The notes under the pieces are model-generated. The model had not been told where the DNA came from. It saw only the letters and a list, made by a program, of their open reading frames with translations, and ran no database searches. The position numbers and the translations under genes were made by a program. From Thelocarpon superellum (taxonomy: Eukaryota): DNA of 53,630 nucleotides. Of the stretch, positions 1,370 through 9,915 are shown piece by piece (the stretch's first letter is position 1; every line of letters begins with the position of its first letter). The stretch lies in contig JAPEUG010000079.1 of assembly GCA_026025795.1 (NCBI GenBank), forward strand, positions 1 to 53,630, written 5' to 3'.

Positions 1370-1488
1370 ACATACGACCATAGACTGTGGAGAACTGGGC
1401 ATCCCGTCCGCTCTGCCATACATAAGCCACAGATCGGCGGACTAGTAGTTGGGTCGGTGACGACCAGCGAATCCCCGCTGTTGTATGT
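1370..1488 (+). rRNA. 5S rRNA: 5S ribosomal RNA (dispersed copy)
   Basis: 119 nt ACATACGACCATAG...TCCCGTCCGCTCTGCC...TAAGCC...CTAGTAGTTGGGTCGGTGACGACCAGCGAATCC...TGTTGTATGT. The 5' and 3' ends pair (helix I). An AT-rich element lies at about -29. Confidence 0.97.
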
Positions 1489-1500
1489 TTTGATATTTTT
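1488..1500 (+). terminator. RNA polymerase III oligo-T terminator of the 5S gene
   Basis: TTTT at 1488-1491 and TTTTT at 1496-1500, directly after the 5S sequence. Confidence 0.8.
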
Positions 1501-5057: not shown

Positions 5058-5655
5058 ATGGCCACCAACGTGGTCTTAGACACCACGATGGTACGTTCCA
5101 GTAATGTGATGATCTGGTGAATGGCTTCCTTGCTTACGCTCACGGAACAGGGTTCCATCACAGTTGAGCTATACGACGACCACGCACCCAAGGTAGGACA
5201 TCTCATTCTTAGTGTGGATCATACTGATCCTGCTTCAGACGTGCAAAAACTTTGCAACCCTGGCTCAACGGGGCTATTACAACAATTGTCTCTTCCACCG
5301 AATCATTCCCAACTTCATGATCCAGACTGGCGACCCCACGGGCACAGGTCGTGGTGGGACGTCGATTTATGGAGAAAAGTTTGAGGACGAGATCAGTCCG
5401 TCGCTGAAGCACACTGGCGCCGGCATCCTGAGCATGGCCAACAGCGGTCCCAACACCAATGGGAGCCAGTTTTTCATCACCCTGGCACCTACTCCCTATC
5501 TCGATGGCAAACACACCATCTTTGGACGGGTCAAATCTGGCCTACGGACCGTGCAGCGCATGGGGCTTGTCAAGACTGGCCAAGCCGATCGACCAATGGA
5601 GGATGTGAGGATCACGGGAGCTAAGATAGTTACTGAGGAGAATGAAAGCATTTGA
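5058..5655 (+). CDS. CYP1: Peptidyl-prolyl cis-trans isomerase-like 1 (PPIL1-type spliceosomal cyclophilin)
   Basis: Exons 5058-5090, 5151-5192 and 5239-5655 give [30 protein letters not shown]...[22 protein letters not shown]...[18 protein letters not shown]. Confidence 0.95.
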
Positions 5656-6253: not shown

Positions 6254-8180
6254 ATGGAACCTCTCAGCGAGACGCCGTGGGACGTCGTCATCTCCGGAAC
6301 GGGGCTGGAGCAGTCTTTGCTTGCACTGTACGTGATCCAACGTAAAGAAGATCGAGAATCACGGCCGTTCTGACTGACATAGCGGTTGAGGAAGAGCATT
6401 GTCTCGCTCCGACAAGAAAGTGCTCCATGTCGATGGCAATGAGCATTATGGTGGTGCCGAGGCTGCACTCAGCCTACAAGATGCAGATGCATGGGTGACA
6501 AAGATTGGCCAAGGTATGTTTCCGTCTTTGTTACGACCATGCATGCTAATGGATAGCAGGGCTTTCCCAGTCTGTTTTCCGAGATGCCTCCGTCACAACT
6601 CCTGAAGTGAGCTTGGACGCTTCTAAGACGAGGCCGAAGTTGTCATTCTCTCGTGCATACAGCCTGACTTTGTCACCACAACTCATCTATGCCCGATCGC
6701 CTCTTCTCTCCATTCTGGTGTCCTCGAAAGTGTACCAGCAGCTCGAATTCCAGGCCATCGGTAGCTGGTGGGTATATCAGGTAGGAACGAGTGAGGCAGC
6801 GGACTTTTCGCCTCGGGGAATGTTGAAGAAAGTCCCCAATGGCCGCGAGGATGTCTTCACGGATAAGTCGATCGATCTCAAGTCGAAACGAGCGTTGATG
6901 AGATTTTTGAAGTTTGTGGGCAACTACGAAAATCAGGGCGAAATATGGGAAGCATGGGCGGACAAACCGTTCGTGGAGTTCCTACTCGCCCAGTTTGGGC
7001 TACCAGTTGCTCTGCATCCGCCGCTCCTGGCCATCTCTATGACCTGCGACCGGCCCGAAAATGCTTCAACGGCCACGGTCTTGCCCAGCATCGCTCGACA
7101 CCTGCGGTCCATTGGCGTCTTTGGACCCGGCTTCGGAGCGGTGGTGCCAAAATGGGGCGGGGGTTCCGAGATTGCTCAGGTGGGATGTCGAGCTGCGGCT
7201 GTTGGCGGAGCCATCTACATGCTGGGACGGAGTATCGATGCGCTTTCGCCGACGGAGGTTGACGGTAACGGTCACACGAGATGGCGCGTGTCGCTAGGCG
7301 ATGAAGAAATAGTGACGACACAGTGGATTGTGGGATCACCGGTTGATGTGCCGGAGTCATTTCCCGCGCACGCATCGAGAGAGACAAGCAACGACCGCAC
7401 CTTTTTCAAATCCATCACCGTGGTCTCTGGCACATTAGCAAGTCTCTTGCCGAGCACGGCGGAGGGTGCGCCACCATCCGCAGGTGCCGTGATCGTCTTT
7501 CCCAGCGACAGTGTTGGAAAAGCATTCTCACACGCGCCGGTGCATGTGATTCTACACACCAGCGATACGGGCGAGTGTCCGGCAGGGCAAAGTAAGTTAC
7601 GTCCAATGTTCCGTCCTGCGTTGTCCACTTTGCAAAAGATGATCAAGTTATGAATACTTATCTACATTGTCTGCAACAACCTTGAGGACATACAACCTCT
7701 GACAACCTGATGCACATCCTCTCGCTTCCCTATCATACAACATCTGGGTCATGGAGCACCGCTAATCGATGAAACGATCAAGGTGTGATGTACGCGAGCG
7801 TCCTGGCAGAAGATGGAACAGAGCCGGATATCCTGGGCACGGCCATCTCTACCCTTCTGGGCAGCGTCCCGGATGAAAGCGAGCACGAGATCCTGTACAG
7901 CGTACGCTACAAGCAGCTCAGCCCGGCACAAGCTGCACTGCCATCTTCCCCTCCGTCCTCCTCAACACAAGCACAGTACCACCTTACTTCGCTTCCGAGC
8001 GCCGAACCGGTCTTTGACGACGGGATGATCGAGCGGGTCAAGGCACTCTGGGGGAAGATCGTGTCAGAGAGGGGAGATGGAGAAGGGGTGGATGACGCGA
8101 CATTTATGACATTTGAGGATCGGCAGGCGATAGGTGGTGGCGGTGATGACGACGATGATAATGATGGAATGGAGGGGTGA
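6254..8180 (+). CDS. MRS6: Rab proteins geranylgeranyltransferase component A (Rab escort protein, GDI family)
   Basis: MEPLSETPWDVVISGTGLEQSLLAL|ALSRSDKKVLHVDGNEHYGG; VPNGREDVF; PKWGGGSEIAQVGCRAAAVGGAIYML. Introns at about 6328-6394, 6514-6559 and 7592-7782. Confidence 0.9.
7631..7714 (+). ncRNA. Intronic box C/D snoRNA, snR62/SNORD34(U34)-like, with a second guide against 18S rRNA
   Basis: TGCA terminal stem (7631-34/7711-14); box C AAGATGA 7636-42; guide CTTATCTACATTGT 7657-70 (antisense to LSU ACAAUGUAGAUAAG); D' CTGC; C' TTGAGGA 7682-88; guide ACCTCTGACAA 7695-7705 (antisense to SSU UUGUCAGAGGU); box D CTGA 7707-10. It sits in a 191-nt intron. Confidence 0.88.
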
Positions 8181-8315: not shown

Positions 8316-9915
8316 TCATTTGCTCGTCTGCAACTCATAAGATTAGCAATGCCCTCGACGGGAGAGAAAAGCGAATTAAATTGAAAAGAGAAGAAGGAAG
8401 GGAAGGGGGGCAAGGAAGAAACTAACATCGAGCACAAGCCGTCCGGCAATCTTCCCCGCCCGCATCTGGTCATAAACAGTACTCAACTGGCTCAGTCCGA
8501 CGATTTTGATCGGGCAGTCGATGAGGCCGCGCTCCCAGAACGACAGGGCCTCGGCCGTGTCGTGGCGAGAACCGACGTAGCTCCCCTTGATGGAGATCAT
8601 GCGCGTCACGACGGAGAAAATGGGCGCCGAGATCTTTGCGGACGCTGGCATGCCGATTGCTACCACTGTACCGCGTGGGCGTACATACTGTCGTATCTCT
8701 CGTCAGCAGGATGTCATCATGTGTATGCGCATAAAGGGTGGAAAAGTTGTAGATGTACGTCGAGATGGCATCCTTGTCTCTGTGCATGGGGGTAGGGTAG
8801 GAATTCTGACAACGGAACAGAACGGTGAGGAGCTATCACAGCATACCTCGATGGCCTGCTCAAACGACTTCTCGGCGACTGCGACGACGAGGACGGCGTG
8901 CGGACCAAGCCCGTCGTCCGTCGCGGCCTGTACGTCCTTGACCAGGTCGTGTGAGGTGGCAAAGTCCACGAAGGCGCGCGTGCCGTATTTCTCACACATT
9001 TCTCTCTTCTCCTCCCCCTCGTCGATGGCAATGGTCTGGAGGCCCATTGCTTTGGCGTATTGTAGTGCCAGTACGCCCAGGCCCCCGCCTGCCCCCGTCA
9101 CCGCTACGACTTGGCCTGGTCGCGCCCCGGACTCTTTCAGCCCCTTGTATACCGTCACGCCCGCGCAGAGGATCGGGGCCACTTTGTCCATGGCTACGTC
9201 CTTGGGGAGGTGCGCGACGTGCGTGGCTCTGGCGACGGCGTATTCTGATCTCGTCAGCAATGACAACGCGGGACGTAAGGACGGGGGCAGAGGGAGAAGG
9301 GGAGGTACGCTGGAAGGTGCCGTCGACGGTGTATCCTGATAACGACGCCTTGGCACACAGCGGTTCGTCGGATTGCTGGCAGAAGTCACACGCTAGACAG
9401 GTCCCATTGATCCACTGGAAAGACATCATCTGGATCAGAGATGGCTTGGAGCTGATGGAGGAAATGCCCACTTTGATCCCGACGTTGTCTCCAACCTCAA
9501 CCTCTTCGACTAGGGCTCCTCGGCTCACGACCACACCCGCTCCTTCATGGCCTATGCCGTTTCGTCAGTGACGTCTTTCATGGGAGGAGGATGCGTGTGC
9601 GATACCGCCGACGAGGGGAAGTTTCGTATCGAGAGGCCAATCTCCTTGAAGGGCGTGGAGATCACTAAGCCCGGTCAGAGGAGACAGACATGGGATGGCC
9701 GGTAAGAGCAGACGTGTGGCAGACGCCGCTGAACTTGACGTTCACCAGAACCTCGTCTGCTCCCGGGGTCGGGACAGGGATCTTTTTGTACTCCACCGCT
9801 ACTCTCCCGTCAGTGACACCATCACCTCCGCATGATACGGGTGGAAGGCTGTCGTACGACCGCCGCTCTTCTCAAACACCTGCGCCCATTGCATCTTGGG
9901 AATTGTGGGAGCCAT
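8316..9915 (-). CDS. ADH1: Zinc-dependent alcohol dehydrogenase (ADH1-type)
   Basis: Seven introns. Spliced product [13 protein letters not shown]...GVCHTDLH...GHEGAG...CLACDFC...C...[15 protein letters not shown]...GAGGGLG...SIKGSYVG...RLVLD|TSK*. The last exon is 8316-8327. Confidence 0.93.

Follow-up and report, generated by a model that had tools for sequence, protein, structure and literature searches.

What accounts for the length of the last intron of a Rab escort protein (REP) gene, and does it encode a product of its own? The gene lies in a 53,630-nt stretch of DNA from Thelocarpon superellum, hereafter the window. An initial annotation, made from the letters of this stretch, placed in its last intron a double-guide box C/D small nucleolar RNA (snoRNA) directed at ribosomal RNA. 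The coordinates of the gene and its introns are as follows:

6254..8180, + strand: host gene, Rab escort protein (Rab geranylgeranyltransferase component A), from tblastn of the named orthologs P0001, P0002 and P0011 and splice-site reading
6254-6327, 6395-6513, 6560-7591 and 7783-8180, + strand: predicted REP exons, from tblastn and splice-site reading
6328-6394, + strand: REP intron 1, 67 nt
6514-6559, + strand: REP intron 2, 46 nt, or 43 nt if the AG three bases upstream is used
7592..7782, + strand: last REP intron, predicted host of the snoRNA, 191 nt, GTAAGT...AAG, phase 1
7762..7766, + strand: putative branch site CTAAT, 17 nt 5' of the 3' splice site and about 50 nt 3' of the snoRNA, from sequence reading only

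By homology, the host gene is a Rab escort protein, nearer to REP than to the GDI proteins, in agreement with the initial annotation. Exon 3 matches the GDI family in Pfam (PF00996, E 1.4e-12), and the comparison with the PDB ranks Rab Escort Protein 1 (E 2.6e-15) ahead of Rab GDI (E 1.6e-5). The best named relatives are Pezizomycotina proteins annotated as 'Rab proteins geranylgeranyltransferase component A', with those of Sclerophora and Trichoglossum at approximately 50-53% identity. The last intron is bounded by a 5' splice site GTAAGT at 7592 and a 3' splice site AAG ending at 7782. Across it, the exons join as ...GECPAGQ-S-VMYAS..., where named orthologs such as P0001 read ...GECPAGQSVLYAS... 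in the tblastn alignments. Since the other two introns measure only 67 and about 46 nt, the description of the 191-nt intron as about three times longer than its neighbours is correct.

The gene is flanked upstream by a cyclophilin-type peptidyl-prolyl isomerase (window 5197-5655, + strand; PF00160, E 6.6e-46) and downstream, on the opposite strand, by a zinc-binding dehydrogenase (window 8703-9392, - strand; PF00107, E 1.9e-15). A dispersed 5S rRNA gene is located at 1370-1489 (+ strand; Rfam RF00001, 73.5 bits, E 1e-13).

The intron contains the following predicted elements, all on the + strand:

7631..7714, + strand: box C/D snoRNA, 84 nt long with its 4-bp terminal stem; C-to-D span 75 nt
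7631..7634, + strand: 5' arm of the terminal stem, TGCA, pairing with TGCA at 7711-7714 (4 bp; RNAduplex of the flanks, -4.0 kcal/mol)
7636..7642, + strand: box C, AAGATGA, with A at position 2 where the consensus has U
7657..7670, + strand: D' guide, CTTATCTACATTGT, 14 nt; counting upstream from D', the fifth base is A7666
7671..7674, + strand: D' box, CTGC, degenerate, from sequence reading
7683..7688, + strand: C'-like box, TGAGGA, degenerate, aligned with TGAAGA, TGACGA and TGGAGA of the orthologs described below and, by eye, with UGACGA of Neurospora crassa Nc CD22
7695..7706, + strand: D guide, ACCTCTGACAAC; counting upstream from box D, the fifth base is A7702
7707..7710, + strand: box D, CTGA, invariant in seven of seven aligned sequences

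The element starts 39 nt 3' of the 5' splice site and ends 68 nt 5' of the 3' splice site. Every part that had been proposed for it, namely the terminal stem, the C, D', C' and D boxes and the two antisense elements, is found in place. The description of two boxes as non-consensus also stands, with box C carrying A instead of U at position 2 and D' being degenerate. The 4-bp terminal stem is missing from the minimum-energy fold of the snoRNA, and the fold is not significant (z -0.09), as is expected of a single-stranded guide RNA.

The insignificant intrinsic fold and the two degenerate boxes would equally suit motifs brought together by chance within a long intron, or an element that acts in splicing and has no guide function. 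Against such an origin, both guide patterns are rare. The D' 14-mer is unique in the window at up to two mismatches, with 0.10 occurrences expected per shuffle, and the D-guide core together with box D is unique at up to one mismatch, with 0.12 expected. A second line of evidence comes from the orthologous introns of other fungi.

A metagenome scan with the 15-nt word CTTATCTACATTGTC, whose last base differs from the rDNA strand according to the CD28 pairing, returned at least 119 loci. Comparison of the REP exons of the window with 120 loci, by tblastn, yielded six loci in which the word lies beside a REP gene (L027, L048, L050, L073, L102 and L112). The distance from the end of REP exon 3 to the word is 62-78 nt in at least six loci among the matches listed, and 67 nt in the window. 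All six orthologs have a canonical box C and box D with a C-to-D span of 74-80 nt, and box C reads [A/C]TGATGA in each of them. A seventh copy, L020, is interrupted by the start of its contig and scores 41 bits. The D' box is CTGC in L112, L102 and L073, CTGA in L050, L048 and L020, and CTGT in L027. The D-guide core CCTCTGACA, which is complementary to 18S rRNA, is common to four of the six orthologs and Nc CD22. In L048 the core reads TCTCTGACA; at the 5' end of the core, C is replaced by U in L048 and in L020, a change that keeps a G-U pair with the G of 18S rRNA. The window and four of the six orthologs have predicted stems flanking the snoRNA, which differ in sequence from one another; none is predicted for L112 and L102.

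The pairwise identities of alignment A1 delimit the conserved element sharply. Identity is 100% in box D, 85% in the D-guide core, 67% in C' and 89% in the five bases preceding the 15-mer used for the search (the 100% within the 15-nt word being a consequence of the search), compared with 28% and 35% in the intron flanks. An alignment of orthologous REP introns, the check called for at the outset, thus finds boxes and guides conserved in six metagenomic fungal loci. Such a pattern, with boxes and guides kept and the remainder free to change, is typical of a guide RNA. By REP protein identity, the contigs compare as follows: L048 is 99% identical to Aureobasidium pullulans, L050 is Pleosporales-like at 69%, L073 and L102 are Physcia-like at 58-67%, and L027 is Elsinoe-like at approximately 52%. 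The element is therefore found in the same REP intron in Dothideomycetes-like and Lecanoromycetes-like contigs, and it is present there in many other assemblies as well.

One of these copies deviates in its second guide. In the Elsinoe-like contig L027 (2973-3059, + strand), the snoRNA of the REP intron retains the LSU guide and has a different D guide, which lacks the 18S complement. From its sequence, the second guide in this lineage would have been either replaced or never gained.

Three further loci, L029 (approximately 960-1150, + strand), L044 and L096, carry an snR62-like D' guide with other D guides and show no REP exon in the DNA covered; they were not counted among the orthologs. Around the match, L029 and L044 are visibly rich in GC, and L029 contains a second box-C-like ATGATGA approximately 110 nt downstream, which suggests a snoRNA cluster of some other eukaryote.

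A sequence-only model (R1) was built from the six orthologs (alignment A2) with the window left out. Run against both strands of the 53.6-kb window, it gives a single match, at 7637-7712, with 60.3 bits and an E value of 7.6e-18. R1 gives 10.6-23.8 bits to loci that have no more than the word in common, and the remaining loci of the word search look like chance 15-mer matches. An element recovered by this independent model, and retained in one intron while the REP proteins are only 40-52% identical and the rest of the intron is unconserved, is hard to attribute to coincidence or to splicing alone, and we regard the probability of either origin as close to negligible. A box C/D guide RNA remains the preferred reading.

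With a box C/D guide, the rRNA nucleotide that faces the fifth base of the guide is the one to be 2'-O-methylated, so the targets of both antisense elements can be predicted. A direct counterpart is available for this purpose in Neurospora crassa, where Nc CD22 (GenBank EU780946) was recovered as a 79-nt cDNA-library clone, given the location 'Intron' and described as a double guide (PMC2780460). Its D' guide, 5'-CUUAUCUACAUUGU-3' followed by CCAA, pairs with 26S rRNA 5'-ACAAUGUAGAUAAG-3' and places Um1866 at the fifth position (14/0), and its D guide pairs with 18S rRNA 5'-UGUCAGAGGUG-3' at Um893 (11/0) (PMC2780460). For the D' guide, the same source gives as homologs snR62 of S. pombe and S. 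cerevisiae and U34 of plants and human; for the 18S guide, its table has no yeast, plant or human homolog (PMC2780460). In the available portion of that paper, methylation mapping covers the targets of CD11 and CD29 only, and 18S-Um893 is thus a prediction (PMC2780460).

The 14-mer of the window D' guide is identical, letter for letter, to that of Nc CD22. Compared by eye, the two RNAs share a 21-nt block at the D' guide, UGAAUACUUAUCUACAUUGUC, as well as the 10-nt core of the D guide, ACCUCUGACA, followed two bases on by CUGA. The shared blocks are alike in order and spacing, and the fifth-base register is alike in both guides. All 14 bases of the D' guide pair with the printed 26S string, the rRNA being that of N. 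crassa (supplementary file 4), and 10 bases of the D guide pair with the printed N. crassa 18S string, which covers 10 of the 12 guide bases. The D' guide and the D-guide core thus match Nc CD22, which bears out the assignment to the double-guide box C/D class and names a second target, the 18S site Um893, that the initial annotation had left unnamed. The LSU target had been placed by the +5 rule at the uridine of yeast snR62 (Um1888) and human SNORD34; the pairing of Nc CD22 at 26S-Um1866 and the register of SNORD34 agree with this, on the rRNA of N. crassa. Yeast 25S Um1888 is assigned to snR62 (PMC8307265), and a site common to plants, human and yeast is given as yeast Um1886, U34 Um2824 and AtU34 Um1882 (PMC3511168). 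The pairings support the prediction that the D' guide would address the LSU uridine equivalent to 26S-Um1866 and 25S-Um1888. Likewise supported is a D guide that would address the 18S uridine equivalent to N. crassa Um893, itself a predicted site.

As an rRNA stand-in, one contig from a viral-contig scan with the LSU motif (L001) was considered and rejected, its site differing upstream of the core. This IMG/VR contig is eukaryotic LSU rRNA according to Rfam, with model positions 1-2129 in only about 1100 nt; it is reduced or fragmentary rDNA, probably a misfiled eukaryotic sequence. The viral-contig scan with the 18S motif gave no match.

A shorter snoRNA can also be drawn in this intron, ending at the first CTGA (7699-7702), related to Aspergillus fumigatus Afu_328 and having another D guide. 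The Rfam model of Afu_328 (RF02403) does align to 7630-7705, at 19.1 bits (E 1), and Afu_328 resembles the window element in being of the C/D class, in measuring about 75 nt and in lying in a fungal intron. This score is far below the gathering threshold of 70, and Afu-328 guides 26S Gm2792 and sits in intron 2 of Afu6g04570 (PMC2377427); on target, host and score we rejected it as a relative. In the available text of the A. fumigatus cDNA survey there is no Um18xx, Um88x, Um89x or Um90x entry. The first CTGA is part of the D guide, inside its conserved 18S-complementary core, rather than a box. The second is invariant, with the stem directly after it, and the N. crassa cDNA extends to the second CUGA. 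An end at the first CTGA is accordingly very improbable, and we retain the full-length snoRNA of 7631-7714.

The main irregularity of that full-length element is its box C. Position 2 is A only in the window; the six orthologs and Nc CD22 all have U there. AAGATGA, unique among these eight sequences, could mark an inactive or weakened relic, in which the U-to-A change impairs the kink-turn and the binding of Snu13, little or no snoRNP forms, and another copy, or none, serves the rRNA sites. Box C still matches RUGAUGA at six of seven positions and retains both GA dinucleotides. Both guides, box D, C' and the spacing are intact and identical or nearly identical to the orthologs. Decay predicts scattered changes, and one is seen. 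We therefore consider a relic improbable, and a functional guide is the reading that we carry forward.

The snoRNA has also left traces in protein annotations. In a sample of 162 REP-family proteins, which is independent of the RNA word, 54 end within 60 residues after the GEC motif that closes exon 3. These truncated proteins, gene calls from public assemblies, are the product of calling that ran on into the intron. The D' guide appears translated, in one of the three frames, in 26 of the 54, with near-variants in three more; the other 25 stop within 21 residues, short of the guide. The translated guide often follows MM or HDD, which is box C in translation, and tails such as ...MMNT..NTYLHCL.., seen among proteins P0050-P0158, combine box C and the D' guide. 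The snoRNA tails in these 26 calls are an artefact of annotation, by which protein databases come to contain snoRNA sequence. In P0030 and P0033 the whole intron is read through, with a variant peptide.

The REP model of Escovopsis weberi (P0042) is a different case, with a readthrough of 33 residues (about 99 nt) at this intron position. The insert begins with CEY, like GTGAGT translated, and is without a translation of box C or the guide. The gene model is likely mis-annotated. A readthrough lacking the guide peptide suggests that the snoRNA is absent from this REP intron in some lineages, of which P0042 would be a possible example.

Taken together, we find it very probable that the intron gives rise, by processing, to a methylation-guide snoRNA of the box C/D class that is orthologous to Nc CD22. 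From general knowledge of intronic box C/D snoRNAs, the REP pre-mRNA would be transcribed and the intron then removed by splicing. Snu13, Nop56, Nop58 and the methyltransferase Nop1/fibrillarin would assemble on the C/D kink-turn and on C'/D', and the debranched intron would be trimmed by exonucleases to the terminal stem, yielding an RNA of about 80 nt; these steps, too, are those known in general for such RNAs. The D' guide (7657-7670) would pair with 14 nt of LSU rRNA, where the U opposite A7666 would be 2'-O-methylated (the Um1888/U34/Um1866 site). The D guide (7695-7706) would pair with 18S rRNA, where the U opposite A7702 would be modified in the same way (the Um893 equivalent). As the snoRNA would be without a promoter of its own, we propose that REP transcription sets its supply.

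A more far-reaching proposal is that hosting by the last REP intron is old and has been kept by selection across several Pezizomycotina classes, either with the guide supply tied to expression of the Rab prenylation machinery or with snoRNP assembly tuning REP splicing. In this proposal, the U-to-A change in box C would make the present copy hypomorphic and both rRNA sites would be partly methylated. We offer this combination as speculation and think it unlikely as a whole.

Part of this picture was in print before. The snoRNA family and both of its targets have been published since 2009 (PMC2780460, Nc CD22), and the initial annotation thus overstated the interest of the element. The host appears to be the newer part. 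No host gene of Nc CD22 is named in the text of PMC2780460 or in its seven supplements, and 'Rab' occurs zero times in the text. A literature search on Rab escort protein, snoRNA and intron found no text linking this snoRNA to REP. The words 'escort' and 'MRS6' are absent from the text of PMC8476143, and 'escort' from its supplement; the S. pombe table 'ncRNA in intron' has no 'escort' entry; and The fungal snoRNAome, whose supplements may list the family and loci, does not use the word 'host' in its main text. As none of the texts searched links this snoRNA to REP, a conserved REP host is a small new observation.

The biology itself would be ordinary, combining an already described guide, for an LSU methylation that is universally conserved, with an 18S site so far predicted for filamentous fungi only. 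The snoRNA would explain why this intron is three to four times longer than those next to it, and the genome of the window would gain a non-coding RNA gene absent from its annotation. Owing to the shared location, the REP gene locates the snoRNA, and the snoRNA in turn helps to fix REP gene models.

The closest known system is Nc CD22, with which the window element shares the intronic double-guide organization, an identical 14-nt D' guide, the 10-nt D-guide core and the order of the elements. The sizes are similar (a cDNA of 79 nt in N. crassa and 75 nt from C to D in the window), and the D' box is degenerate in both. The two differ in box C (UAUGAUGA in Nc CD22 and AAGATGA in the window), in the D' box (CCAA and CTGC) and in the two bases adjoining box D (UU and AC).

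Comparison with Rfam gives a more distant relation. At the gathering threshold, nothing is found in the REP intron, and only a 5S gene in the window. In a permissive scan of 7550-7800, SNORD34 (RF00147) is the best family, at 19.3 bits (E 0.28) against a gathering threshold of 38, and its alignment places the guide and D' in register with the RF00147 consensus. The suggested search with Rfam models thus gave no hit at gathering, and the expected relationship emerged in the top sub-threshold family. The window snoRNA would address the same LSU uridine as yeast snR62 (RF01205) and human U34/SNORD34 (RF00147), both of clan CL00055. It is thus predicted to work like SNORD34 at the LSU site, yet by Rfam's criterion, with a score below the 38-bit threshold, it is not a member of RF00147. 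The hosts also differ: SNORD34 resides in an intron of RPL13A and snR62 is independently transcribed, whereas the window element lies in a REP intron.

Stable hosting by a protein gene has parallels among fungal snoRNAs. For snR59 in RPL7 and snR191 in NOG2, both the intron position and the host gene are conserved across many fungi (PMC8476143), and the REP-intron snoRNA resembles them in that one intron position of one protein gene is retained in many fungi. The hosts of snR59 and snR191 are ribosome-biogenesis genes, while REP serves Rab prenylation, a process unrelated to ribosomes.
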